64,000 nucleotides of DNA from Gemmatimonadota bacterium (GCA_031375485.1 JANMHX010000328.1:8-64007); one strand, 5' to 3'; shown: positions 44,124 to 60,933, numbered from the stretch's first letter. The notes: generated from the sequence alone by a model not told the origin. Made by a program: numbers and translations.

Positions 44124-44792
44124 GTGGAGATTCCGATCGTCATCGAAACGCCGGCTCGACCGGTGTCAGCCCTTTTGCGTGAGGCCTCGGGCCCCGTGGC
44201 TGGCTATGTCCTGGCCCACGGAGCGGGGGCCGGCATGCGCCATCCGTTCATGGCGGACGTCGCGGCCGCGCTCGCCGCCGCCGGCGTCACCACGCTCCGG
44301 TATCAGTTTCCATTTATGGAAGCCGGAGGCCACCGTCCGGATTCCCCGGCGGTGGCCGTGGCGACGGTGCGGGCCGCAGTCGATCGGGCCCGACACCTCC
44401 TCCCTGGTCTGCCCCTCGTTGCCGGGGGCAAGTCCTTCGGGGGCCGGATGACCTCGACCGCGGCGGCCGAGTCGGCGCTCGAGGGGGTTCGCGGCCTGGT
44501 GTTCCTCGGCTTCCCGCTCCATCCGCCGAAGCGTCCCGCCACGACCCGGGGCGACCATCTCGATCGGGTTACGGTGCCGATGTTGTTCCTCCAGGGGACT
44601 CGGGATGATCTGGCCGAGGTCGGCTTGATCCGTTCGGTGGGCGCCCGGTTAGGCGGCCGGGCCACCCTCCACGAAATCGCCGAGGCTAATCACGCCTTCG
44701 CGGTGCCGAAACGCACCGGCCGGACCGCCGCCGACGTCATCGCCGAACTCGCGGCCACTACCGCCGAGTGGATCGGGACGCTCCCGCGGTGA
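44124..44792 (+). CDS. Alpha/beta hydrolase of the COG3571 / KANL3-TEX30-like family
   Basis: YVLAHGAGAGMRHPFM, nucleophile elbow GGKSFGGRM and LFLQGTRD. The start is uncertain: GTG 44124, or ATG 44077 if the C7 run at 44082-44088 is one base short. Confidence 0.7.
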   Translation: MEIPIVIETPARPVSALLREASGPVAGYVLAHGAGAGMRHPFMADVAAALAAAGVTTLRYQFPFMEAGGHRPDSPAVAVATVRAAVDRARHLLPGLPLVAGGKSFGGRMTSTAAAESALEGVRGLVFLGFPLHPPKRPATTRGDHLDRVTVPMLFLQGTRDDLAEVGLIRSVGARLGGRATLHEIAEANHAFAVPKRTGRTAADVIAELAATTAEWIGTLPR

Positions 44793-47692
44793 AGCCGTCA
44801 TCGAATCCCACTCCGTCCCCGGCCCAAGCCCAAGCCATCGGTGCCGGCGCCGGGCCGGTCCTGGTGCTGGCGGGTCCTGGCGCCGGGAAGACGTTCTGTC
44901 TGATCGAGAGGATCCGGTTCCTGGTCGACCAGCGCGGTGTCGATCCCGAGCGGATCTGTGCGTTGACCTTCACCAACAAGGCCGCCGAGGAAGTGGCCGC
45001 CCGGCTCCGCCGCGAGCTCGGGCCCCGGGCCGATGCCGTCACCCGGTCCACCATCCACTCCCTCTGCGTCAAGATCCTCCGGGCCCACGGCGAGGCGTTA
45101 GGCTTGGAGAAAGGCTTTGGGATCGCCGACGAAGACTATCAGAAGGAGCTGCTTGGCTGGCTCAAAGTGCCGCCCAAGTGGCGGAGTTCGCTCCTCGGCC
45201 GGTTTGGCCTGGCCCGGCTCGGCGCGAAACCGCTGCACGAGGACGACGCCCGGACCTTTGAGCGCTACCGGGCCTATCTCACCAAACGCGGGATGATCGA
45301 CTTCGACGATATCGTCCATCTCACCAAGGAGTTGTTTGACCGGTTTCCCGGTATCGCCGCGGAGGTGGCCGGCCGGTGGGATCATCTCTTGGTCGACGAG
45401 GTCCAGGATCTCAATCCGGTCCAGTTTTCGATCGTGACCACGTTGGGTCGCGCCCATGGCAACGTCTTCGTCGTCGGCGACGACGAACAGTCGATTTTCT
45501 CGTGGACCGGAGCCGACCCCCGGCTGATTGCGACGTTCGCCAACGAATTCCGCGCGGTGGACCGGATCGTCCTCGACGAGAACCGGCGCACCGCGGGGCA
45601 GATCTTTGCCCTGGCCCGCCGCTTGATCGCGAGCAACGCCCCGTTGTTCGGCCCGAAGCAGATCACGGCCACCCATGAGTCGGAGTACCCCGTGGTGGCC
45701 CGTTCGTTTCCCGATGAACACGCCGAGGCGGTCTGGCTACTCGAGGACGTCCAAGCCGACCGGGCTGCCTCCGGGCTCCCGTGGGGCGAATACGCCGTCC
45801 TCTACCGCAAACACGCCGATGGGCATCTGCTCGAAGGCGCCCTGATGCAGGCCGGCTTGCCGTGCCGCTTGGCCCACGGCCGGGCGCTGGCCGACGACTC
45901 GGCGGTCCGGTATCTCATCGCGGCGCTCAAGGTGATCTCGTATCCCGGCGACCCGGTCATCAACGAAGGCTTTGCACGGGTGGTGCTGCCGGGCGCGCTC
46001 TGCGACACGCTCCGGAAGGCCGCCTTGAAGGACGGGATCGGCTTTCTCGGAACCCTCCATCGCCAGGCCCGGGCCCGGCCCCGCACCGACGAGGAAGGGC
46101 GGAAGATTCGCCGGGCCCTGGCGGCCATGCAGAACCTGACGGCGTTAGGCCAGCGGCACCGGCATTTGGCGCGCCTGGTCGACGAGATTCTATCCCAACG
46201 AGTGGGCGCCTACCATACCATCCTCGAGCAACGGGCCGAGGAACTTTCCGATCCGGCAGGATATCCGGAAGTACTCCGGCTGGCCCGGGAACTGGAACGG
46301 GTCCGCGATGCTCGGGTTCCGGTGCTGATCCAAGCGATGGGGGGGCTCGAGTTCGGCCTGGCCGGGATGTTGGCCGGCGCGGGGATCCGGCTTTTCGGCA
46401 TCACCACGGCGCCCCCGCCCGGTCGGTTCGTCCTCGGCCCGGCGTGGTCGTGCCCCGATCTCGGGCTCGCGCTCACGGTGTTCAAAGCGCTCCAGTTCAT
46501 GACCGCGACCACCGAGGGTGCCTCCGGCAATTTCGTCGCCGTCGACCTCGAGACCACCGGCCGGGACGTGGCCACGGCCGAGGTCGTCGAGCTCGGCGCG
46601 GTCCGGGTCCGAGACTGGGAAATCGTGGCGGAGTTCCACCAGCTGGTGAAGCCGGCCGTCCCGATCGAGCCGGGCGCGAGCGCCACCCACCACTACAGCG
46701 ACGCGGATGTGGCCAACCAGCCCTCGTTTGACGAGGTGTGGCCCCGGTTCAAAGCCTTTGCCGCGACCGACGAGCTGGTCGCCCACAACGGCTACGATTT
46801 CGATTTCCCGATTCTCCGCCGGATGTCGGGCGACCGGGACTTCGTGACCTACGACACGCTGCCCTTGGCTCGTTCACTCCGCCTCGGCAGCGCCAAACTC
46901 CAGCACTTGGCGGCCCGGTTCGGGATCGATCCCGGCACCGCCCACACCGCGCTCTCGGACGTCCGGACGTTGGCCCAAGTGTACCGGAAGCTGGAGGAGG
47001 AGAAAGTGGCCCGGGCCCGGCGCGTGGCCCTGTCCAACGTACTCGACTATCTCGGCGTGGCCTTGGCCCTTTCCGACCCCGAGACGTTAGGGCCGGAAGC
47101 CCATCTGCTCCGGGATCTCACCTCCATCTATGCCCTCGGCCGGTTCAGTGACTGCCTCGAGTTCTACCGGGCCGAACGCGACCGCTCGAACCAGGGTGCC
47201 GTCGCCGTCGACGAACTGATCGAACGTCTCGGCGGCCAGTCGCTCATGCTCAAAGTCCGCGCCGAAAAACGCTCCGACCAGCGCTACCCAGCCGCCATGG
47301 CCCGGGTCCGCCGCCTCCTCGACGATCTCGCGGAGGAAACCCTCGAAGCCGAAATCCAGGAATTCCTAAGCCGCGTCGCCCTCTCGAGGAGCGACGGCAT
47401 CGAAACCGACCAGGACCGCGTCAACCTCCTGACCCTCCACTCCACCAAAGGCCTAGAATTCTCCCGAGTCTACATCGTCGGCGTCGAAGACGCCGAGATG
47501 CCCGGCCTCCAATCCCTGCCGAGTGCCGAGCGCCGAGCGCCGAGTGCCGAGCTCGAAGAATCCCGCCGGCTCTTGTACGTCGGAATGACCCGGGCCAAGG
47601 AGCGTCTGGTCATGACCCGGGTGGAAGCCAGATCCGGCAAGTTGACCGGCGGCCACCGCTTCCTCGATGAGATGGGTCTCTCGCCTACTTGA
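44789..47692 (+). CDS. UvrD/PcrA-family SF1 helicase with an inserted DEDDh (DnaQ-like) 3'-5' exonuclease domain
   Basis: Helicase motifs: GPGAGKT, LLVDEVQD, VVGDDEQSIF, ENRRT, TLHSTKGLEF, YVGMTRAKERL. Exonuclease motifs at nt ~46523-47003: VDLETTG, AHNGYDFDFPIL, HTALSDVRTL. GTG 44789 overlaps the upstream stop as GTGA; the track start is GTG 44768. Confidence 0.85.
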   Translation: MKPSSNPTPSPAQAQAIGAGAGPVLVLAGPGAGKTFCLIERIRFLVDQRGVDPERICALTFTNKAAEEVAARLRRELGPRADAVTRSTIHSLCVKILRAHGEALGLEKGFGIADEDYQKELLGWLKVPPKWRSSLLGRFGLARLGAKPLHEDDARTFERYRAYLTKRGMIDFDDIVHLTKELFDRFPGIAAEVAGRWDHLLVDEVQDLNPVQFSIVTTLGRAHGNVFVVGDDEQSIFSWTGADPRLIATFANEFRAVDRIVLDENRRTAGQIFALARRLIASNAPLFGPKQITATHESEYPVVARSFPDEHAEAVWLLEDVQADRAASGLPWGEYAVLYRKHADGHLLEGALMQAGLPCRLAHGRALADDSAVRYLIAALKVISYPGDPVINEGFARVVLPGALCDTLRKAALKDGIGFLGTLHRQARARPRTDEEGRKIRRALAAMQNLTALGQRHRHLARLVDEILSQRVGAYHTILEQRAEELSDPAGYPEVLRLARELERVRDARVPVLIQAMGGLEFGLAGMLAGAGIRLFGITTAPPPGRFVLGPAWSCPDLGLALTVFKALQFMTATTEGASGNFVAVDLETTGRDVATAEVVELGAVRVRDWEIVAEFHQLVKPAVPIEPGASATHHYSDADVANQPSFDEVWPRFKAFAATDELVAHNGYDFDFPILRRMSGDRDFVTYDTLPLARSLRLGSAKLQHLAARFGIDPGTAHTALSDVRTLAQVYRKLEEEKVARARRVALSNVLDYLGVALALSDPETLGPEAHLLRDLTSIYALGRFSDCLEFYRAERDRSNQGAVAVDELIERLGGQSLMLKVRAEKRSDQRYPAAMARVRRLLDDLAEETLEAEIQEFLSRVALSRSDGIETDQDRVNLLTLHSTKGLEFSRVYIVGVEDAEMPGLQSLPSAERRAPSAELEESRRLLYVGMTRAKERLVMTRVEARSGKLTGGHRFLDEMGLSPT
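47518..47552 (+). repeat. Five tandem GCCGAGY heptanucleotide units inside the helicase CDS
   Basis: GCCGAGT GCCGAGC GCCGAGC GCCGAGT GCCGAGC encodes …PSAERRAPSAE… between helicase motifs V and VI. Confidence 0.85.
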
Positions 47693-48500
47693 TGAGCTGC
47701 CATTTCGTACGGGTGTAGGCGACCCGGAACCCGTGTCGCTCGGAATTCCGTTGCGAGGCGCTGCCCGGCAAAGTCGTGATCATGGCCACGTCGCAGCCCC
47801 GCTCGACCGCAAACCGAAGCCGGGCGCTGAGCAGGGCGAGTTGGGCGCCGTGACGGCGCTCCTCGGGGATCGTGCTCGCGCCCGCAAGGAGTGCCACTCC
47901 GCCGGTGATCGAGAGCGCGCCCGCCGCGATCGGCCGGCCCTGGCGTTCGGCCACGAAGGTCAGGGCGCCGGGCCGGCGGGCCCCGATCTCCGACAACTCG
48001 GCCATGGTCGAGGCGTACTCCGGGAACTCACTCCAGCCTCTCGTCGCGGTATCGGCCCAGACCCGCCACTCGTCCGGACCCGTTTGCCGAACCGATACCT
48101 CCGGGGAGGCTCCTCGGATATCGATGGTCGCATCAATCGGCCGATAGAGAACATTCGACCACTCCATCGGCCGGTACCCGCGGACAGGTAGCCGCGCCAT
48201 GGTCGCAAGGTCCGCGAGCGGGCTGACCTCGTGGAAGGTCGGGGCGCCCCGCTCGGCGAAGAATCCTTCGATCCGGTCGAATACCTCGGGCGTCCCTGGT
48301 TCGAAGACTCCGAGGCCGAACGTCTGGGTGACCGGCGAGTCGACCCCGTCGAACACCGCGTAGGCGCCGGCCGCCTCGATCCACTCCGCGCCGCTCCCGG
48401 GCCGAAGGATCCGGCGGCCTTCGGCGAACTGGGCGCACCCGGTTGCCTCGGTGCGTTCGAGCCGGCGGGCCAGCTCGAGATCGGCAAACGGGACGCTCAC
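47685..48500 (-). CDS. Two-domain GNAT family N-acetyltransferase
   Basis: 271 aa. The C-terminal GNAT core has an acetyl-CoA loop (…EERRHGAQLALLSARL…) and ERHGF. The GTG start overlaps the DUF72 stop as GTGA. Confidence 0.7.
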   Translation of the reverse strand: MSVPFADLELARRLERTEATGCAQFAEGRRILRPGSGAEWIEAAGAYAVFDGVDSPVTQTFGLGVFEPGTPEVFDRIEGFFAERGAPTFHEVSPLADLATMARLPVRGYRPMEWSNVLYRPIDATIDIRGASPEVSVRQTGPDEWRVWADTATRGWSEFPEYASTMAELSEIGARRPGALTFVAERQGRPIAAGALSITGGVALLAGASTIPEERRHGAQLALLSARLRFAVERGCDVAMITTLPGSASQRNSERHGFRVAYTRTKWQLIK

Positions 48501-49195
48501 AGCTTGGCCTTGAGACTCATGGCCACGGGCGGGCCGGAACCGGGCGAGTGGTCATGCTTGAAATAAATGAAGGCATCAGTCCACCCGAAGCCAGCGATTC
48601 GCGCGGCCCACGCGGCCAGGCCCGCTTCGTCGTAATCGAGCTTGTGGAGCCGGACGTAGCCCCAGTCCGCCGTGGCCACCAACGGCGTCGGCACGCCGTC
48701 TTGGTCCGAAATGCAGAGGGGAACGTCCCGGGCTTTGAGCACCTCGAACACTTGGTCGTCCTCAAACCAGGTCTGATTTCGAAACTCGATCGTGATCCGC
48801 CACCGCTTCGGGACGATATCGAGAAAGGCCTCGAGTCGAGGAATGTCCTTCTTCAAGTGGGGCGGGAGCTGAAAGAGTGTGGGGCCGAGTTTGCTGCCTA
48901 ACACCGCAACGGTCTGGGCCAGATACCTGACCAGTTCCCCCGCGTCCCGGAGTTGGGCGTGATGGGTAATCCGCTGACTGGCCTTGATGGCGAACTGGAA
49001 GCCTTCCGGGACCTCGGCGGCCCAATCGAGCAGGTTCTTCTCGCGGGGCATCCGGTAGAACGTGTTGTTGATCTCGACCGTCGGGAATTGGCTCGCGTAA
49101 TACGCCAGCATGCCCTTGTCGGGAAGTTTGGCCGGATAGAACGGCCCTTTCCATTCCTTGAAGGCAAATCCGCTGGTCCCGACGTACGACGCCAT
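48497..49195 (-). CDS. DUF72 (YecE/TM1631) family protein
   Basis: MASYVGTSGFAFKEWKGPFYP…FPTVEINNTFY is the canonical DUF72 N-terminus. Its start overlaps the Ku stop as TGATG. Confidence 0.82.
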   Translation of the reverse strand: MASYVGTSGFAFKEWKGPFYPAKLPDKGMLAYYASQFPTVEINNTFYRMPREKNLLDWAAEVPEGFQFAIKASQRITHHAQLRDAGELVRYLAQTVAVLGSKLGPTLFQLPPHLKKDIPRLEAFLDIVPKRWRITIEFRNQTWFEDDQVFEVLKARDVPLCISDQDGVPTPLVATADWGYVRLHKLDYDEAGLAAWAARIAGFGWTDAFIYFKHDHSPGSGPPVAMSLKAKL

Positions 49196-49971
49196 CAGGA
49201 GGCCCGGGCCAGGCTCGCCTTCAAGGCCTCCATCAGGTCGATGATCTTGCCGCCGCCATCCTGGGCCGGCTCCGCCGTGATTTCGTGACCCTCGACCTTC
49301 TTCTGGATGGCCTCGAGCACCCGGGCCCGAACCAGGTCGCGGTATTTCTCAGGCTGGAAGTCGTCGGTAGCGGCCTGCTCGATCAGCTGCTTGGCGAGCG
49401 TCAGCTCCATGGGCTTCAGTTCGGCGTCGCCGAGGGGCACTTCGTTGGCCGGTTTGAGCTCGTCTTGGTAGTGGAGCTGTTCCATCACGAGGAGCCCGTT
49501 CATGGGCCGGAGCAAGACGAGATGTTGTTGGCCGCGGGCGGCATATTGCCCAAGCGCCGCCCGACCGGTATCGCCGAGGGCCTGCGCCAGGAGTTTGTAG
49601 GCCCGGTCGCCGCCCTTGTCGGGGCCGAGGAAGTAGACCTTCTCGAGATAAATCCGGTCGACCTTGGCGAGCGGCACGAACTCCGCGATGTCGATGGTAT
49701 TGGTGGCCTTCTCTTCCAGCGCCTTGAGCTCGTCGGCTGAAAAGACGACGTACTGATCCTTGGCAAACTCGTAGCCCTTGGCCATCTCGTCCCGGGGGAC
49801 GATCTCGCTGTCCTTGGGGCAGGTGTACTGCTGCTTGACCCGCGTCCCACACTTCTTGTGGAGCAGGTTGAACGAGACGGCGCTGGTCGACTCGGCCGAC
49901 GAATAGACATGAACGGGCACCGAGACCAGGCCGAAGGAAATGGTGGCGGTTCCGATCGAACGAGCGGGCAT
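49195..49971 (-). CDS. ku: NHEJ DNA-end-binding protein Ku
   Basis: ATG 49971 has an AGGAGG SD. MPARSIGTATISFGLVSVPVHVYSA… is the canonical bacterial Ku N-terminus. 258 aa. The upstream part of the track ORF is junk. Confidence 0.92.
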   Translation of the reverse strand: MPARSIGTATISFGLVSVPVHVYSSAESTSAVSFNLLHKKCGTRVKQQYTCPKDSEIVPRDEMAKGYEFAKDQYVVFSADELKALEEKATNTIDIAEFVPLAKVDRIYLEKVYFLGPDKGGDRAYKLLAQALGDTGRAALGQYAARGQQHLVLLRPMNGLLVMEQLHYQDELKPANEVPLGDAELKPMELTLAKQLIEQAATDDFQPEKYRDLVRARVLEAIQKKVEGHEITAEPAQDGGGKIIDLMEALKASLARAS

Positions 49972-50018
49972 GAGAGGCCTCCTGGCGTTGGCTTCTAAGG
50001 TACTGGCGACCGCCCCGG

Positions 50019-50052: not shown

Positions 50053-51954
50053 ATGCGAATCGTCCTCCTTGCCCTGCTGGCCCCCGCCGTCCTGTCGGCC
50101 CAGACCGACTGGCCGGCCTGGGGCGGCGACCCCGGCGCCATGAAGTACTCGGCCCTCACCGACCTCCACCCCGGCAACGTCGGCCGGCTGACGAAGCTCT
50201 GGGAATGGAGCACCGGCGAGGTGCCGCTGGCCCAGTGGAAGACCCGGCCCGGGCTGTTTCAGGCCACGCCTCTGATGATCGGCGATACCCTGTTCCTGCC
50301 GACCTCGTATAACCAAGTGGCGGCTCTCGACGCCGCCACTGGCCGCGAGTACTGGCGGTTCGATCCCCGGGCCTATGAGGCCGGCCAAGCGCCTAACGGT
50401 ACCGGATTCGTTCACCGGGGGGTTGCCAGTTGGAGCGATGGGAAAACTCGCCGGATCTTCCTCAATACCCGCTGGCGCCTGATCGCCCTCGATGCCGCCA
50501 CTGGTAAGCCGATCCCTTCTTTTGGGGTTCAAGGCGAGGTCGACCTGGCTGGAGACCTGGTGTGGCAGGTCAATCGCCGGCGGTACACCAATACCTCGCC
50601 TCCGGTGGTGTGGGGTGACCTGGTCATCGTGGGCAACGGGGTGGCCGACAAGTTCACCTACAAGGGCGATCCGCCCGGTGATGTCCAGGCCTTCGACGTC
50701 CGAACCGGCCGGCGGATCTGGAAATGGAGTCCGATTCCCCAGGGTGGCGAGGGATCGGAAACGTGGGAGGGTGAGTCATGGCGGTTCACCGGTCACACGA
50801 ACGTGTGGGCGCCCTTCAGCGTCGACGTGGCGCGGGGACTCGTGTACCTCCCGGTCAGCACCCCGAGTAACGACTGGTACGGCGGCGCTCGCAAGGGCGA
50901 CAATCTCTTTGCCGAGTCCCTGGTGTGCCTCGATGCCCGAACCGGCAAGAAACAGTGGCACTTCCAGATCGTCCACCACGGACTCTGGGACTACGACCTC
51001 CCAACGGCGCCGGTGCTCGGCCGGGTCACCCAAACCGGCGGACCGGTCGATTTCGTCGCGATGCCGACCAAAATGGGGATGCTGTTCGTGTTCGATCGGG
51101 TGACGGGCAAGCCGCTCTGGCCGATCGAGGAACGCCCGGTGCCGGCAAGCGATGTCCCCGGCGAGCGCGCCGCCCCGACCCAGCCGTTTCCCACCAAACC
51201 GGCGCCCTACGCCCGCCAGGGCTTCAGTGCCGCGGATGTGGTCGACTTCACCCCGGCCCTGAAAGCGTTGGCGACGAGGACCGTGGCCGGCTACCGAACC
51301 GGCCCGTTGTTCACGCCCCCCTCGCTCCAGGGGACGGTGGCGTCACCGGGACTGATCGGCGGCTCGGGGTGGGGCGGCGGTGCCTATGATCCGGAAACCG
51401 GGATCATCTACGTGAAGGCCACCAACCAACCGGCCCTGCTCAAGTTGGTCAAGCCGCCGTCGTCCGACTCACTCGACGCCGCTTACGCCCTCGATTTTGC
51501 GGCGGGCCTCGACCTCAATGCCAAGTTGTTGTCGAGTTCCGACGATCCGCAGAGGGCGGCGGCGTCTTTGCCGATCAGCAGGCCACCGTACGGAACGCTG
51601 ACGGCCATCGATCTCGCGACCGGCGATCACCGGTGGCAAGTGCCGTTGGGCGACTCCCCGGAGATCCGGAATCATCCGCTCTTGAAGGGTGTGAACCTGC
51701 CTCCGCTCGGCGTGGCCGGCGCTCCCGGGGCCATCGTGACCAAAGGAGGGCTGCTCTTTGCGACCGGTGGCGGTTCGGCCCTCTATGCGCTGGACAAGGC
51801 CACCGGGAAGGTGCTCTGGCAGACGGCGCTCGGCGCGCTCGGTTACGCCAATCCGATGACGTACCGCACCCGGGCGGGGCAGCAGGTAGTGGTGATTGCG
51901 ACCGGCGGCGGGGCGGCGCCGGCCAAACTCCAGGCCTTTGCGTTACCGCGGTGA
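50053..51954 (+). CDS. Secreted PQQ-dependent (quinoprotein glucose/quinate dehydrogenase-type) dehydrogenase
   Basis: Signal peptide, then DWPAWGGDPGAMKYSAL…NVGRLTKLWEW and repeated W-motif propeller blades across 633 aa. Confidence 0.8.
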   Translation: MRIVLLALLAPAVLSAQTDWPAWGGDPGAMKYSALTDLHPGNVGRLTKLWEWSTGEVPLAQWKTRPGLFQATPLMIGDTLFLPTSYNQVAALDAATGREYWRFDPRAYEAGQAPNGTGFVHRGVASWSDGKTRRIFLNTRWRLIALDAATGKPIPSFGVQGEVDLAGDLVWQVNRRRYTNTSPPVVWGDLVIVGNGVADKFTYKGDPPGDVQAFDVRTGRRIWKWSPIPQGGEGSETWEGESWRFTGHTNVWAPFSVDVARGLVYLPVSTPSNDWYGGARKGDNLFAESLVCLDARTGKKQWHFQIVHHGLWDYDLPTAPVLGRVTQTGGPVDFVAMPTKMGMLFVFDRVTGKPLWPIEERPVPASDVPGERAAPTQPFPTKPAPYARQGFSAADVVDFTPALKALATRTVAGYRTGPLFTPPSLQGTVASPGLIGGSGWGGGAYDPETGIIYVKATNQPALLKLVKPPSSDSLDAAYALDFAAGLDLNAKLLSSSDDPQRAAASLPISRPPYGTLTAIDLATGDHRWQVPLGDSPEIRNHPLLKGVNLPPLGVAGAPGAIVTKGGLLFATGGGSALYALDKATGKVLWQTALGALGYANPMTYRTRAGQQVVVIATGGGAAPAKLQAFALPR

Positions 51955-52368
51955 GGCTCGAAACGGGTTGACCACCTCGAGGCCGTCGAGCCGCCAGCCG
52001 TGCTGGAGGTCTTCGGAGTAGAGCCGAGTGCAGCCGGAGGCCAGGGCGGCCCGGATGATGAGGCCGTCCCAGAACGACAGCTGATGAAGCCGGTGGAGGT
52101 CGATGGCGCCGAGAATGTCGTCGAGTCCGATCGGCACCAATTCAAACCGGCCGAACAGTTCCGCTTTGCGGCGTGCGACGGGCGCCGTCACGCCGAGTTT
52201 CTTGGTCGCGGCGACGAAGTACTCCTGGACGACTTGCGTCGAGATGACCCCCGACCGATCGAGCCGGTGTTTGGCGATCAACTCCAAAGCCCTGGTCTGT
52301 TTCGCCGGCGCGTCGGCGTCGTCGGTGTAGACCAGGACGTTGGTGTCGAAGAAACTACGACCGCTCAT
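51943..52368 (-). CDS. vapC: PIN-domain toxin (VapC family)
   Basis: MSGRSFFDTNVLVY… contains the first PIN Asp. Later acidic residues are also present (…VQEYF…, …WDGLII…, …YSEDLQ). The start overlaps the upstream antitoxin gene by 14 nt. Confidence 0.8.
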   Translation of the reverse strand: MSGRSFFDTNVLVYTDDADAPAKQTRALELIAKHRLDRSGVISTQVVQEYFVAATKKLGVTAPVARRKAELFGRFELVPIGLDDILGAIDLHRLHQLSFWDGLIIRAALASGCTRLYSEDLQHGWRLDGLEVVNPFRASPR

Positions 52369-52582
52369 GGAGGCTGCCGCGGTCGAACGTCCAGCCCTTG
52401 GAACGCCCACCCGATTCGAGGGACAGCTGTTTCAGCTCCTTCAACTCGGCATCCATTGCGCCCTCCCCGGCCAAATAGGCCAAATGATCCCTGATGACTT
52501 GGTTGAGACTCTTCCCCATGGCCTCGGCGACCTTCCGGGCCCGCTCCACCAACTGTCGGTCGACGGACAGGGTGATATTCAT
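52355..52582 (-). CDS. vapB: Ribbon-helix-helix type antitoxin (VapB-like)
   Basis: MNITLSVDRQLVERARKVAEAMGKSLNQVIRDHL is an RHH-like N-terminus. 75 aa from ATG 52582. The track start 52618 is the TTG of a TTGACA -35 box. Confidence 0.7.
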   Translation of the reverse strand: MNITLSVDRQLVERARKVAEAMGKSLNQVIRDHLAYLAGEGAMDAELKELKQLSLESGGRSKGWTFDRGSLHERS

Positions 52583-52588
52583 GTCCAC

Positions 52589-52618
52589 ATAATACGTGTG
52601 CACATATAGAGGTGTCAA
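52589..52618 (-). promoter_or_regulatory. vapBC promoter with operator-like palindrome; leaderless layout
   Basis: On the minus strand: TTGACA-N18-TATTAT-N6-ATG(52582). An 8-bp palindrome TGTGCACA (52597-52604) lies in the spacer. Confidence 0.55.
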
Positions 52619-52735: not shown

Positions 52736-55324
52736 ATGGCGGACCAAGAGCCATCTCCAGCGGAGCAACTGGCCGCGTACCGGGCCAAACGGTCCGCTGA
52801 TCGGACCCCAGAGCCATTCGGGGGCGAGGCCGTGCCGTCCCAAACCGGCGGCCTCTTCGTCGTCCACAAACACGCCGCCCGCCATCTCCACTTCGACTTT
52901 CGGTTCGAGATGGACGGGGTTCTCAAGTCATGGGCCGTGCCGCGAGGACCTTCGTACGACAATACCGAGAAGAAACTGGCCGTCCGGGTCGAAGACCATC
53001 CGCTCGAATACGGTGATTTTGAGGGCCTGATTCCCGAGGGCAATTACGGTGCGGGCGCGGTGGTGGTGTGGGACCGGGGTGAGTGGATTCCACTGGAGGA
53101 TCCGAAGGCTGGACTGGAAAAGGGCAAACTTTTGTTTGAGCTCAAGGGCTACAAGCTCCGGGGCCGTTGGACGCTGGTGAAGATCAAAAAGAGCGAAAAA
53201 GACTGGCTCTTGATCAAAGAGCGGGATGCCTGGGTCAAGCAGCCCGGGGACGACTTTGCCCAGGAATCGGTCCTGTCGGGCCTCACGGTCGAAGATCTCA
53301 AGGCCGGCCGGACGCCGGCCGATCTGCTCCGCGACGAGCTGGTCCGCCTCGAGGCCCCGCGCCGGGTGGTGGAGGCCGGTTCGACCGACGTGATGTTGGC
53401 CGAGACGTCGGAGGAGGGATTTTCCAAAGACGGGTGGATCTTCGAGCTCAAGCTCGACGGCTACCGGCTCATGGTGAACCACCGCTCAGGCGAGGCCCGA
53501 CTCTTCACCCGAAGCGGCGCCGACTACACCGCGGTGTTCCCGGAGATTGCCCGCGCCATCAAGGCGCTGCCGCTCGAGAACGTGATCCTCGACGGCGAAG
53601 TGGTGGTGCTCGATCCGACGGGCGTGCCGAACTTCGCGCTGCTGCAGCGGCGGGGGCGGTTGGGCAAGGGCATCGAGATCCGGCGGGCGGCCATCGAGCT
53701 CCCCGCGACGTTCTTTGCCTTCGACCTATTGGCGTTCGAGGATTTTGATCTCCGGCCGCTGCCACTCCTGGAACGGAAGCGGCTGCTGAAGAGGATCCTC
53801 CCGCCGCTCGGCCCGATCCGGTACCTCGATCATATCGAGCGCGACGGGGCACCGTTCCTCGCGCAGGTGACCCAGATGGGGCTCGAGGGCATCATCGCGA
53901 AGAAAGCCGACGCGCCATACCGGGCCGGCCGGACCCAATCGTGGCTCAAGATCAAAGCCGACAAGACCGCCGACTTCGTCATCGTCGGGTTCACCGCTCC
54001 GCGGGGGGGCCGGGGCGGCTTCGGCGCCCTCCACCTGGCCGATTACGTCGGCGGGCGGCTCGTCTATGCGGGCCGGGTTGGCACCGGCTTCACCGACCAG
54101 CAGCTGGCCGAGTACCACGATCTGCTGGTGCCGCTCGTCCGGCCGCTGGCGCCGTGCGACGGCCCGCTCGCCGATCCCAAGGCCGAACCGATGCCGATCG
54201 ATCAGGTCCCGGAGATGAAGACGACGAGCTGGGTTGAGCCCCGTTTTGTCTGCGAGGTCCGCTCGCGGGAGTGGACGCCCGACGGGGTTCTTCGCCATCC
54301 CGCGTTCATCCGGCTCCGGGACGACAAACGGCCCGACCAGTGCGAACGGCAAGGGTGGACCGAGCCATCGGTTCCGAACCGGCCGGACCCTCCGGCCGAC
54401 CGGCCGCCGGCCCAACGCAAGACCACGTTCTCGAACCTGAACAAGGTGTTCTGGCCGGACGAGAAGTACACCAAGGGCGACTTGATCGACTACTACCGGA
54501 CCATCGCACCCTGGCTGCTCCCGTATCTCCGGAACCGGCCCGTGGTCCTGACCCGTTTTCCCGACGGCATCAACGGCAAATCGTTCTATCAGAAGGATGC
54601 CCCGGAGTTCGCGCCCGATTGGATCCGGACCGTCCCGATCTGGAGTGAGGACACCCAGCGAGACATCCGGTACTTCGTGTGCGACGACGAGGAAACCCTG
54701 GTGTACTTGGCCAATTCCGGCACCATTCCGCTCCACATCTGGCAGAGCCGGATCGGTTCGCTGGAACTGCCCGACTGGTGCGTCATCGATCTCGATCCGA
54801 AGGAAGCACCGTTTCGCGATGTCCTGACGGTGGCCCGGACCCTCCATCGGATTTGTGAGGAGTTGTCGCTCCCGAACTACGTCAAGACGACCGGGAAGAC
54901 CGGTCTCCATGTCCTGATTCCGCTGGGCCGCCAGTGCACCTACGAACAGTGCCGAACGTTAGGCGAGCTGTTGTCCCGGCTGGTCATCGCTGAGCACCGG
55001 GATATCGCCACCATTACCCGGAGTATCACCAAGCGGGGCGACAAGGTCTATCTGGACTATCTCCAGAACCGGCACGGCCAGTTGATCGTCTCGCCGTATA
55101 GCGTCCGGCCGCTGCCGGGGGCGACGGTGTCGATGCCGCTGGTGTGGGAGGACGTCACCGACGACCTCGAGCACCGCCGCTTTACCTTCACCATCAAGAC
55201 CGCGGTGGCCCGGATGGAAGGGCTCGGGGCCGATCCCTTGGCCCCGGTGCTCGAAGAGAAGCCGGATCTCGTCGCGGTCTTGGCGCGGCTGGCCGCCAGA
55301 TGGGCCGCCTCGAAAGACGGCTGA
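52736..55324 (+). CDS. ligD: Multidomain NHEJ DNA ligase D (phosphoesterase-ligase-polymerase order)
   Basis: PE domain (FVVHKHAARHLHFDFRFE…WAVPRGPS), ligase domain with the adenylation Lys (FELKLDGYR), and primase-polymerase domain (…FWPDEKYTKGDLIDYY…VYLDYLQN). Confidence 0.93.
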   Translation: MADQEPSPAEQLAAYRAKRSADRTPEPFGGEAVPSQTGGLFVVHKHAARHLHFDFRFEMDGVLKSWAVPRGPSYDNTEKKLAVRVEDHPLEYGDFEGLIPEGNYGAGAVVVWDRGEWIPLEDPKAGLEKGKLLFELKGYKLRGRWTLVKIKKSEKDWLLIKERDAWVKQPGDDFAQESVLSGLTVEDLKAGRTPADLLRDELVRLEAPRRVVEAGSTDVMLAETSEEGFSKDGWIFELKLDGYRLMVNHRSGEARLFTRSGADYTAVFPEIARAIKALPLENVILDGEVVVLDPTGVPNFALLQRRGRLGKGIEIRRAAIELPATFFAFDLLAFEDFDLRPLPLLERKRLLKRILPPLGPIRYLDHIERDGAPFLAQVTQMGLEGIIAKKADAPYRAGRTQSWLKIKADKTADFVIVGFTAPRGGRGGFGALHLADYVGGRLVYAGRVGTGFTDQQLAEYHDLLVPLVRPLAPCDGPLADPKAEPMPIDQVPEMKTTSWVEPRFVCEVRSREWTPDGVLRHPAFIRLRDDKRPDQCERQGWTEPSVPNRPDPPADRPPAQRKTTFSNLNKVFWPDEKYTKGDLIDYYRTIAPWLLPYLRNRPVVLTRFPDGINGKSFYQKDAPEFAPDWIRTVPIWSEDTQRDIRYFVCDDEETLVYLANSGTIPLHIWQSRIGSLELPDWCVIDLDPKEAPFRDVLTVARTLHRICEELSLPNYVKTTGKTGLHVLIPLGRQCTYEQCRTLGELLSRLVIAEHRDIATITRSITKRGDKVYLDYLQNRHGQLIVSPYSVRPLPGATVSMPLVWEDVTDDLEHRRFTFTIKTAVARMEGLGADPLAPVLEEKPDLVAVLARLAARWAASKDG

Positions 55325-60150: not shown

Positions 60151-60933
60151 GTGAAACTCGCCACGTGGAACGTCAATTCGATTCGGGCCCGGCTGCCCCG
60201 GCTGCTCGACTGGCTCGCCCGCGCCAATCCCGATGTCGTCTGTTTGCAGGAACTCAAGGTTCCTGACGCCGACTTTCCGGTTGCTGAACTCGAAGCCGCC
60301 GGATACCGCGCGGCCATTTTCGGTCAGCGAACCTACAACGGGGTTGCGATCCTGGCCCGGGAATCCATTGCCGATGTCGCCCTGGGGATGGCCGACGAGA
60401 GCCCGGACGACCAGGCTCGGCTGATCGCGGCCACGGTCGGGGGGATTCGAATCATCTCCGCGTATTTCCCGAACGGGCAAGAGGTCGGGAGTGACAAATG
60501 GGCCTACAAACTCGAGTGGATGGCCCGGCTCGAACGACACCTCAACCGGACCTACCGACCCGAGCAGCCTCTCGTGCTGGCCGGCGACTTCAACGTGGCG
60601 CCGGATGATCGCGACGTGGCGCGTCCCGAGGAATGGCGGGAGAGCGTGCTCTGCCATCCGGATGCCCGGACGGCGTTAGGCCGGATCGGGGCGTGGGGTC
60701 TGGTTGACGGGGTTCGGCTGACCGAACCCGGTCCGGGACCGTACTCGTGGTGGGATTACCGGATGCTGGCGTTTCCCAAAGGCAATGGGCTCCGGATCGA
60801 CCATGTCTTCGTGACGGCGCCGCTCGCGGGGCGGTGCGTCAAGGCGTGGGTCGAGCGCAATGAACGGAAAGGCAAGCTGCCGTCCGATCATGCCCCGGTC
60901 ATGGTGGATCTCGTGGAGGGCTCTCATGCGTAA
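60151..60933 (+). CDS. xthA: Exodeoxyribonuclease III (AP endonuclease)
   Basis: VKLATWNVNSIRARL…VCLQELK…YNGVAIL…SDHAPV. GTG 60151; the upstream part of the track ORF overlaps the divergent gene. Confidence 0.88.
   Translation: MKLATWNVNSIRARLPRLLDWLARANPDVVCLQELKVPDADFPVAELEAAGYRAAIFGQRTYNGVAILARESIADVALGMADESPDDQARLIAATVGGIRIISAYFPNGQEVGSDKWAYKLEWMARLERHLNRTYRPEQPLVLAGDFNVAPDDRDVARPEEWRESVLCHPDARTALGRIGAWGLVDGVRLTEPGPGPYSWWDYRMLAFPKGNGLRIDHVFVTAPLAGRCVKAWVERNERKGKLPSDHAPVMVDLVEGSHA

Follow-up and report, generated by a model that had tools for sequence, protein, structure and literature searches.

The 64,000-nucleotide window, that is, the whole stretch of DNA analysed here, comes from a Gemmatimonadales bacterium and carries its ku operon. 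The second gene of this operon encodes a DUF72 protein whose genomic associations make it a probable, so far undescribed, helper in bacterial end joining (NHEJ): it is coupled to ku in this locus, and in about ten phyla its gene adjoins those for Ku or ligase D. With a probability of roughly 60%, in our estimate, Ku and DUF72 form a coupled pair in which DUF72 acts as an NHEJ accessory enzyme cleaning the ends or nearby lesions, and the tandem GNAT protein encoded by the third gene is a passenger. No paper linking DUF72 to NHEJ was found in the literature searched.

Table 1. Features of the ku operon and of its surroundings; positions are counted from the first nucleotide of the window.
Feature	Position	Strand	Basis
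ku, 258 aa; end-binding protein of bacterial NHEJ	49195..49971	-	PF02735, TIGR02772
DUF72, a 232-aa TIM-barrel protein of the YecE/TM1631 family; candidate accessory enzyme of NHEJ	48497..49195	-	PF01904
Tandem (two-domain) GNAT acyltransferase, 271 aa; apparent lineage-specific operon addition	47685..48500	-	PF00583
TGATG, 1-nt overlap of ku stop and DUF72 start	49193..49197	-	read from sequence
GTGA, 4-nt overlap of DUF72 stop and GNAT start	48497..48500	-	read from sequence
AGGAGG Shine-Dalgarno, 6 nt 5' of the ku ATG	49978..49983	-	read from sequence
ligD, three-domain PE-Lig-Pol ligase D	52736..55324	+	PF13298, PF01068, PF04679, PF21686
Insertion separating ligD from ku	50053..52618		Pfam
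 PQQ dehydrogenase	50053-51954	+	Pfam
 PIN toxin	51943-52410	-	Pfam
 RHH antitoxin	52355-52618	-	Pfam
UvrD-family helicase with inserted DEDD (RNase_T) exonuclease domain	44768..47692	+	PF00580, PF00929, PF13361
Abhydrolase_11 alpha/beta hydrolase, 222 aa	44124..44792	+	PF20408, E=6e-48
Exodeoxyribonuclease III (XthA)	about 60160-60933		TIGR00195, 256 bits

The ku gene opens with an ATG (49971-49969, minus strand), a start supported by the alignment of relatives from residue 1, as is the GNAT start by its own homologues. The last A of the ku TGA (49197-49195) is at the same time the first A of the DUF72 ATG (49195-49193), the DUF72 TGA (48499-48497) overlaps the GTG of the GNAT gene (48500-48498), and the latter gene terminates with a TAG ending at 47685. 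Re-reading of the sequence returned the coordinates of the three genes, the AGGAGG and both overlaps as they had been given in the sequence-only reading of this DNA, and the same is true for the 8-nt convergent overlap with the UvrD-exonuclease gene (its ORF ends at 47692, the GNAT gene at 47685), for the distance of ~2.8 kb between LigD and ku (2765 nt measured from start to start) and for XthA lying ~10 kb off. The three genes share one strand and overlapping stop/start codons with no internal terminator; terminator-like matches in the operon show no excess over the shuffled expectation. The identity of both canonical NHEJ proteins is clear: Ku matches PF02735 (E=1e-46) and, over its full length, TIGR02772 (273 bits, cutoff 150), and LigD, a single protein combining PE, ligase and primase-polymerase domains, scores 523 bits on TIGR02776 against a cutoff of 373.

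Gene overlaps of 1 or 4 nt are common in operons and are unremarkable alone. The conservation of the Ku-DUF72 overlap, however, is not a matter of chance: it recurs in 44 of 45 Ku-DUF72 pairs from species-representative genomes, measuring 4 nt in 39 of them and 1 nt in 5. It had also been argued that the downstream genes, having no Shine-Dalgarno sequence of their own, depend on Ku translation. This argument is weakened by the relatives, where GGAG-type motifs are rare (4/41 ku starts and 4/45 DUF72 starts) and the AGGAGG before ku is itself atypical for the clade, with 37 of 41 ku starts devoid of such a motif; a missing Shine-Dalgarno is thus uninformative in this group, and the evidence for coupling is the stop/start overlap. 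Ku and DUF72 would then represent a conserved pair, co-transcribed and translationally coupled via the overlapping codons, so that DUF72 would be made together with Ku.

The linkage was followed across 80 GTDB species-representative loci gathered with a DUF72 profile (50-94% identity), 60 of them from Gemmatimonadota. Ku or LigD lies within 6 kb of DUF72 in 60 of the 80 loci, and 45 have ku as the gene directly preceding DUF72 in the same orientation; as the search was seeded with the Ku-linked DUF72, these proportions describe the sampled subfamilies and not all PF01904. From genome size, fewer than about 1% of random 12.7-kb segments are estimated to contain ku or ligD. Linkage beyond near relatives, a check set beforehand, was borne out: outside Gemmatimonadota, 9 of 17 named DUF72 loci have one of these two genes no more than 6 kb away, in several gene orders. 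In the reverse direction, DUF72 occurs within 4 kb in 32 of 60 informative Ku loci and is absent nearby in 28. DUF72 remains no further than about 1.6 kb from Ku or LigD in at least eight arrangements, namely <LigD Ku>DUF72>; DUF72> <LigD Ku>; DUF72>Ku>; <Ku LigD>DUF72>; LigD>Abh11>DUF72>; <DUF72 LigD>Ku>; Ku>HTH-TPR>DUF72>; and Ku>Ku>Pol>PE-Lig>DUF72>. The lineages concerned make up about ten phyla and include Gemmatimonadota, Acidobacteriota, Planctomycetota, Verrucomicrobiota, Bacteroidota and Eisenbacteria, as well as Acidiferrobacterales, Margulisiibacteriota, Spirochaetota and a probable Chitinivibrionales contig. In Margulisiibacteriota and Spirochaetota it is a second DUF72 clade, only 43% identical, that ends a Ku-Ku-Pol-PE/Lig operon, and at one locus (L182) the DUF72 gene shares a stop/start overlap with the ligase gene. 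The arrangement <LigD Ku>DUF72> is also present in a cultured organism, on plasmid 2 of Gemmatirosa kalamazoonensis KBS708. A search of 1.8 billion cluster representatives yielded no protein in which Ku and DUF72 are fused. Distant DUF72 genes (35-45% identity) on plasmids of Bradyrhizobium, Nitrobacter and Streptomyces, and another in Desulfomonilaceae, have no NHEJ neighbours. Moreover, E. coli YecE and Thermotoga TM1631 are members of the family from organisms not known to have Ku, so the basic activity of DUF72 presumably cannot depend on Ku.

The DUF72 protein is a full-length member of PF01904 (E=1e-60; 206 bits, cutoff 25.3). Its AlphaFold model (pLDDT 90) is a TIM barrel whose closest structures in Foldseek are 1vpq, 1vpy and 1ztv, the match to 1vpq (E=3e-15, TMq 0.85) indicating a TM1631-like fold; a profile comparison gives E=2e-26. 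It scores only 67 bits on the E. coli YecE equivalog NF007637 (cutoff 412), and by these profile scores it belongs to the family of YecE, in another subfamily. The polar residues E41, N43, Y47, R48, K71, H78, Q109, Y180 and R182 are invariant, E137 and R139 nearly so, and in the model they are situated at strand ends, in a position matching the sulfate/phosphate site described in TM1631 (PMC3828134). The invariant Glu, Asn, Arg, Lys, His, Gln and Tyr at the C-terminal ends of the beta-strands may line a phosphate-binding catalytic pocket. The idea of an endonuclease IV-like DUF72, taken up by the sequence-only reading, goes back to that single computational paper, and the present protein does not belong to either the endonuclease IV or the UVDE family: a comparison of 12 diverse DUF72 proteins with PF01261 (AP_endonuc_2/endonuclease IV) gave no match at E<=10, the top 50 Foldseek neighbours of the model include neither enzyme, and the invariant set, with two acidic residues and one histidine, holds no His/Asp/Glu-rich multi-metal site. 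The other structural neighbours are generic and xylose-isomerase-like TIM barrels with TM of about 0.55-0.6.

Several further genes recur around this pair. In most relatives ligD is directly divergent from ku with a gap of 50-300 nt; the PQQ dehydrogenase/PIN/RHH insertion that separates them here is shared with loci L090 and L091 and absent from most relatives. The UvrD-DEDD exonuclease helicase, whose true start may be an in-frame GTG at 44789, is present in 25 of the 60 Gemmatimonadota DUF72 loci and is co-directional with LigD in eight loci (L103, L105-L109, L124 and L125). The stop codon of the Abhydrolase_11 gene forms a GTGA with this GTG, and Abhydrolase_11 recurs beside UvrD-exo, LigD or DUF72 in several phyla. 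The convergent operon, made up of Abhydrolase_11 and the UvrD-DEDD exonuclease, is part of this conserved neighbourhood too, a point missed previously. A MerR-TPR protein gene recurs in Ku/DUF72 neighbourhoods of other genomes, in many lineages just after ku. One relative has the order PPK2>DUF72>Abhydrolase_11, and the distant plasmid copies of DUF72 adjoin isochorismatase-family hydrolase genes.

The status of the third gene is different. Its product matches PF00583 in the C-terminal half (residues 161-258, 26.7 bits against a cutoff of 20.7), and the AlphaFold model (pLDDT 94) has a tandem-GNAT fold, with VipF, MAB_4324, MshD and 4ius as the top structural matches (E about 1e-12). The sequence-only reading had proposed a three-component system in which this protein acetylates Ku, LigD or DNA termini and so regulates end joining alongside DUF72. 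The GTGA overlap speaks for such a system, together with the preservation of the three-gene order down to 73% GNAT identity (L008, L090, L091 and L097) and with PMC3102665, by which acylation touches mycobacterial NHEJ through a Sir2-like deacetylase. Against this, GNAT follows DUF72 in those near relatives only and is missing from 79 of the 80 species loci with DUF72; its orthologues at 66% and 61% identity lie in unrelated contexts with no Ku, LigD or DUF72; the slot after DUF72 is variable, being occupied in relatives by a FEN-like 5'-3' exonuclease, by DUF2779 or by nothing; and the GNAT family is highly conserved in Acidobacteriota (about 60% identity) independently of NHEJ. DUF72 thus stays linked to ku or ligD in distant lineages and through rearrangements, and GNAT does not. 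The three-component system is very unlikely on these grounds, and the tandem GNAT appears to be a local add-on and not a conserved part of NHEJ, probably a recent lineage-specific insertion at the variable position that separates DUF72 from the convergent Abhydrolase_11/UvrD-DEDD operon, co-expressed here while standing outside the conserved apparatus.

As for DUF72 itself, it could be a general DNA-lesion enzyme, for example a UVDE-like excision or incision nuclease, co-regulated within a stationary-phase or desiccation repair island and acting neither at ends nor with Ku. The family occurs in many genomes without Ku, YecE and TM1631 being examples, and other repair genes are close by (the UvrD-DEDD exonuclease, the FEN-like exonuclease, XthA 10 kb off). 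DUF72 is, besides, enriched near polB2/SRAP, a translesion and abasic-site context (PMC11791011). The overlap, however, specifically involves ku (44 loci) or the ligase gene (L182), and the coupling to ku/ligD persists as other neighbours change, which is tighter than co-regulation alone would give; we consider this alternative unlikely. It is still less probable that the substrate of DUF72 is not DNA but a nucleotide or a small molecule containing phosphate, such as a metabolite for the ribonucleotide use of LigD, and that DUF72 is tied to NHEJ only by co-expression. The resemblance of the pocket to nucleotide/phosphate sites of non-nuclease enzymes (PMC3828134), the sugar isomerases and epimerases among the structural neighbours, the PPK2 gene in one relative and the isochorismatase-family hydrolases near plasmid copies would all suit this proposal, but no metabolic pathway gene consistently adjoins DUF72, whose constant partners are DNA-end enzymes. 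Finally, an inherited gene order in Gemmatimonadota combined with block transfer of the island to other phyla, with no functional link at all, would explain the taxonomic weight of the sample and its uniform commonest arrangement, and the loci were chosen because they resemble a Ku-linked DUF72. A neutral gene order would not outlast the rearrangement seen across about ten phyla, though, nor does it account for the different NHEJ architecture (two Ku genes, split LigD) joined by a DUF72 only 43% identical, and we consider it scarcely credible.

Under the preferred reading, that of an accessory enzyme coupled to Ku, DUF72 would hydrolyse damaged or blocked DNA termini, or lesions beside the break, which the phosphoesterase and polymerase domains of LigD and the AP lyase of Ku cannot clear, such as a 3'-unsaturated aldehyde, 3'-phosphoglycolate, near-end abasic sites, flaps or adducts, and a ligatable end would be handed to LigD. 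Gene identities, overlaps and the linkage conserved across arrangements and phyla are observed; the DNA substrate, the end-cleaning chemistry and the recruitment of DUF72 by Ku are what we infer from them. A more far-reaching version is less likely than not: DUF72 may be a new class of DNA-end-processing hydrolase, a dedicated end-cleaning nuclease in a multi-component apparatus with Abhydrolase_11, UvrD-DEDD and MerR-HTH/TPR proteins. If true, the end-joining apparatus would be much more elaborate than the textbook Ku and LigD, and would contain the 'long-sought' end-cleaning nuclease of bacterial NHEJ.

With endonuclease IV (Nfo) and UVDE, DUF72 shares the TIM-barrel fold and an active site at the C-terminal face, and a related function was proposed earlier for TM1631/DUF72 (PMC3828134, PMC11791011); a comparable role, with AP sites or 3'-blocked ends as its targets, would be in keeping with NHEJ, whereas family match, structural ranking and metal cluster all set DUF72 apart from these enzymes. 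TM1631 (1vpq), EF0366 (1vpy, 1ztv) and YecE have the Pfam family and fold in common with the NHEJ-linked DUF72 proteins, which are shorter (about 232-246 aa versus 270-290) and only about 20-23% identical to the solved structures. In mycobacteria the UvrD1 helicase is reportedly stimulated by Ku (Sinha et al. 2007). A UvrD-family helicase gene is likewise part of the conserved neighbourhood here, but unlike UvrD1 it has a DEDD exonuclease domain inserted into it and an Abhydrolase_11 gene as its partner. The participation of a Sir2-like deacetylase in mycobacterial NHEJ (PMC3102665) indicates that accessory factors exist, and none of the mycobacterial helpers described corresponds to DUF72. 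The enrichment of DUF72 near polB2/SRAP damage-response genes (Comput Struct Biotechnol J 2025, PMC11791011) is an independent genomic tie to DNA-damage tolerance, with the difference that the partners there are a translesion polymerase module and not Ku/LigD, and NHEJ is unmentioned in that paper. The canonical two-component NHEJ of Mycobacterium, Bacillus subtilis and Pseudomonas aeruginosa, whose loci are described in abstracts as Ku and LigD only, is matched here by Ku (TIGR02772) and the three-domain PE-Lig-Pol LigD, and by the mostly divergent ku and ligD of the relatives, as in many known loci. In contrast to it, the present group has DUF72 as a third conserved gene, either coupled to ku or else appended to the ligase gene, together with recurrent Abhydrolase_11, UvrD-DEDD exonuclease and MerR-TPR neighbours.

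Between 49971 and 47685 the minus strand carries three successive ORFs, and reading the sequence again confirmed this arrangement. Profile searches identify the first product as Ku (PF02735, E=1e-46; TIGR02772, 273 bits against a cutoff of 150) and the second as a DUF72 protein (PF01904, E=1e-60), while the third matches PF00583 weakly yet above threshold and over its C-terminal half only, its model (pLDDT 94) being a tandem GNAT fold that resembles VipF, MAB_4324 and MshD. The nearest named homologues are from Gemmatimonadales. The neighbours that the sequence-only reading had named also held in the profile searches: a LigD of PE-Lig-Pol architecture, a convergent UvrD helicase carrying a DEDD exonuclease insert (UvrDexo), and an exodeoxyribonuclease III (TIGR00195, 256 bits) about 10 kb from ku, the last showing no conserved linkage to NHEJ genes in relatives within the flanks examined. 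The insert separating ligD from ku is confined to the clade of the window (it recurs in two related loci, L090 and L091), and in most relatives the two genes stand back to back, 50–300 nt apart. Defence-system models matched neither Ku nor DUF72, nor GNAT nor the hydrolase, and UvrDexo matched generic UvrD-type models only.

Coordinates of features in the window and in related loci (L-numbers)
Feature	Location	Strand	Remarks
ku	start ATG 49971	minus	AGGAGG upstream at 49983-49978
Ku stop/DUF72 start overlap	49197-49193	minus	TGATG, one base in common
DUF72 stop/GNAT GTG start overlap	48500-48497	minus	GTGA, four bases
GNAT end	47685	minus	8 nt within 3' end of convergent plus-strand ORF 44768-47692
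ligD	52736-55324		PE-Lig-Pol
PQQ-dependent dehydrogenase + PIN/RHH toxin-antitoxin pair	50053-52618		insert between ligD and ku
Exodeoxyribonuclease III	about 60160-60933	plus
Abhydrolase_11	44124-44792	plus	PF20408, E=6e-48
UvrDexo	44768/44789-47692	plus	in-frame GTG at 44789 inside GTGA ending Abhydrolase_11
Five-gene operon	L180/L181 1845-6741; L182 2995-7723; L183 2738-7708		two Ku paralogues, stand-alone LigD polymerase, PE-ligase, DUF72
FEN-like 5'-3' exonuclease	L024 6721-7554; L018 2527-3351		PF02739 + PF01367; just 3' of DUF72, the window's GNAT slot
PPK2 (polyphosphate kinase 2)>DUF72>Abhydrolase_11	L178 1563-3828	one strand	2-3 nt spacers; DUF72 45% identical to window's
MerR-HTH/TPR	L095 6917-7726; L133 1558-2385; L139 2410-3237		examples
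Isochorismatase-family hydrolase	L092 2544-3179; L094 1492-2049		Bradyrhizobium and Streptomyces plasmids

Scanning the DUF72 profile against one genome per GTDB species yielded 80 loci (50–94% identity), the six-frame ORFs of which were searched with the proteins of the window. The association of DUF72 with NHEJ genes proved to extend well beyond near relatives, with Ku or LigD lying within 6 kb in 60 of the 80 species loci; counting also the second clade described below, the linkage occurs in several gene orders and about ten phyla. By our estimate, derived from genome size, the chance of finding ku or ligD in a random 12.7-kb window is well below 1%. Ku is immediately 5' of DUF72 on the same strand in 45 loci, and its stop overlaps the inferred DUF72 start in 44 of these pairs (by 4 nt in 39 and by 1 nt in 5). 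Gemmatimonadota make up 60 of the 80 loci, and the linkage is also present in half of the Acidobacteriota loci (4/8) and in Planctomycetota (L071), Verrucomicrobiota (L086), Bacteroidota (L077), Eisenbacteria (L076) and Acidiferrobacterales (L084). The orders encountered, with arrowheads giving the direction of transcription, include <LigD Ku>DUF72>; DUF72> <LigD Ku>; DUF72>Ku>; <Ku LigD>DUF72>; LigD>Abh11>DUF72>; <DUF72 LigD>Ku> and Ku>HTH-TPR>DUF72>, where Abh11 is Abhydrolase_11. A second DUF72 clade, 43% identical to the window protein, closes a same-strand operon Ku>Ku>LigD-Pol>LigD(PE-Lig)>DUF72 in Margulisiibacteriota, where DUF72 overlaps the ligase gene by 4 nt, in Spirochaetota and on a contig with Chitinivibrionales as its nearest named relatives; the one Desulfomonilaceae locus of this clade shows no NHEJ linkage. 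With LigD split and two Ku paralogues present, Ku is possibly heterodimeric in these operons.

The sequence-only reading had taken the missing Shine–Dalgarno sequences of the two downstream genes as a sign that they depend on Ku translation. This argument turned out to be uninformative: in relatives, a GGAG-type sequence precedes the start of Ku in just 4 of 41 cases and that of DUF72 in 4 of 45, so that its absence says little in Gemmatimonadota, and it is rather the AGGAGG of the window's ku that is exceptional, being shared with the nearest relatives (GGGAGG in L009 and L010). The real evidence for coupled expression comes, at the level of sequence, from the conserved overlap (ATGA, GTGA or TGATG). 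Scanning the operon strand inside the operon for promoters and terminators gave no signal above shuffled expectation.

The AlphaFold model of DUF72 is a confident TIM barrel (pLDDT 90). Its closest structures are three DUF72 entries (1vpq, TMq 0.85), followed, with TM of about 0.55–0.6, by generic barrels and others resembling xylose isomerase, and neither endonuclease IV nor UVDE is among the top 50 structural neighbours. As a lenient Pfam scan of 12 diverse DUF72 proteins also gave not even a weak AP_endonuc_2 or UvdE signal, DUF72 lies outside these two families, and the description 'endonuclease IV-like' has to be rejected as a claim of membership. Nine polar residues are invariant across 12 diverse members of the family (E41, N43, Y47, R48, K71, H78, Q109, Y180 and R182) and two nearly so (E137 and R139), whereas H184 and a KHD motif are invariant in the Gemmatimonadota set and not family-wide. 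The conserved polar residues map in the model to the C-terminal ends of the strands, the usual active site of TIM barrels, and the set fits the Tyr/His/Arg/Glu/Arg sulfate/phosphate site of TM1631 (PMC3828134). It is plausible that DUF72 acts on a phosphodiester or phosphate.

Neutral synteny is one rival explanation for the adjacency of Ku and DUF72. In the reverse search, among 80 metagenome contigs with close Ku relatives (55–94% identity), 60 had sufficient flank, and DUF72 lies within 4 kb of Ku in 32 of these (12 directly downstream, 14 with 0.85–2.5 kb between, 6 upstream) and is absent from that interval in 28, which makes its presence near Ku frequent, not obligatory. The plasmids cross-checked show Ku adjoining DUF72 in Gemmatirosa only, a Cupriavidus plasmid Ku (51% identity) being followed by a TPR protein in place of DUF72, and the DUF72 genes on Bradyrhizobium, Nitrobacter and Streptomyces plasmids (n=3, 35–45% identity) having no NHEJ neighbours. 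Linkage that outlasts so much rearrangement is a classical signature of functional association, and we put the probability of a functional link between DUF72 and NHEJ at about 0.8. The proposal of the sequence-only reading that GNAT is a component of the system, modifying Ku, LigD, DNA termini or a small-molecule signal, fared worse. GNAT homologues are numerous and well conserved (about 60% identity in Acidobacteriota), and GNAT follows DUF72 only in L008, L090, L091 and L097, where it is at least 73% identical; at 66% identity it is preceded by an unrelated 169-aa gene (L088), and at 61% it is flanked by rlmN on one side and a PIN gene on the other (L005–L007). The slot that separates DUF72 from the convergent helicase varies among relatives, being empty or filled by Abhydrolase_11, a FEN-like exonuclease or DUF2779. 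We therefore regard GNAT as quite probably a passenger, recently inserted into this slot and co-expressed here, and not a conserved partner.

What DUF72 would do in end joining is a matter of weaker probability. LigD provides the ligase, the polymerase and the 3'-phosphoesterase, and an AP/dRP lyase activity is reported for bacterial Ku (PMC4245934). The gap left by the two proteins would comprise other blocking groups, such as the lyase-derived 3'-unsaturated aldehyde, phosphoglycolate, adducts, flaps and end-adjacent lesions, and DUF72, as a phosphate-directed hydrolase produced in step with Ku, could fill it. This end-cleaning chemistry is tentative, its odds being somewhat below even. DUF72 could instead be a general lesion-repair enzyme merely co-regulated with NHEJ, or its substrate could be a small molecule. 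The family is also present in the Ku-less E. coli and Thermotoga, the family at large being independent of NHEJ. Isochorismatase-family hydrolase genes occur 3–4 kb from the distant plasmid-borne DUF72 genes of Bradyrhizobium and Streptomyces, recalling the adjacent yecD-yecE pair of E. coli, and these neighbours may hint at an ancestral, Ku-independent role. A concatenated Ku+DUF72 query against 1.8 billion cluster representatives found no genuine fusion, and the sole protein matching both parts (P0349) was rejected as a frameshift-garbled product. Two proteins join Ku to other domains: in one of 532 aa (P0279) an AAA+ ATPase of CbbX/SpoVK type comes after Ku, and in one of 457 aa (P0295) a uracil-DNA-glycosylase-like segment does, the tail of which appears frameshifted.

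The wider neighbourhood offers further candidates. Near DUF72, Abhydrolase_11 is found in 27 species loci and UvrDexo in 25; the pair is co-directional with LigD in eight loci (<UvrDexo<Abh11<LigD | Ku>; L103, L105–L109, L124 and L125), and Abhydrolase_11 adjoins DUF72 in Eisenbacteria (L076), Verrucomicrobiota (L086), L082, L085 and L178. Another is a protein of about 275 residues that combines a MerR-type HTH at its N terminus with TPR repeats at its C terminus. Its gene is not present in the window but stands directly 3' of ku in 45 of the 80 Ku contigs (L097–L176), in 11 GTDB loci of Acidobacteriota, Acidiferrobacterales, Gemmataceae and Gemmatimonadota, as well as on a plasmid of Cupriavidus basilensis, some loci being ordered Ku>HTH-TPR>DUF72. 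This protein, commoner than DUF72 in the Ku clade studied here, may act as a second partner or regulator of Ku that has not yet been described.

To our knowledge, the widespread DUF72 family is still without a known function, although its crystal structures (1vpq, 1vpy) date back to 2004. In the literature searched, with subscription journals and database-only knowledge such as STRING outside its scope, DUF72 is named in 12 papers; two of them are computational predictions on TM1631, one notes DUF72 near polB2 and SRAP, and a tie to Ku, LigD or NHEJ is made in none. The overlapping codons, and a linkage to ku or ligD that persists through rearrangement in about ten phyla, suggest for the family a concrete function that can be tested. 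The arrangement is also available in a cultured strain, Gemmatirosa kalamazoonensis KBS708, which carries <LigD Ku>DUF72> on plasmid 2, with DUF72 at about 529.6-530.3 kb. The question bears on how 'dirty' ends get cleaned and on the nuclease behind repair-junction deletions, and the other candidate partners pointed to, Abhydrolase_11, UvrDexo and the MerR-TPR protein, could matter for stationary-phase mutagenesis, desiccation and radiation survival, and NHEJ-based genome-editing tools. Textbook bacterial end joining is a two-protein system; the new element here is a conserved uncharacterised third enzyme, together with further candidate partners, added to the known Ku/LigD pair.
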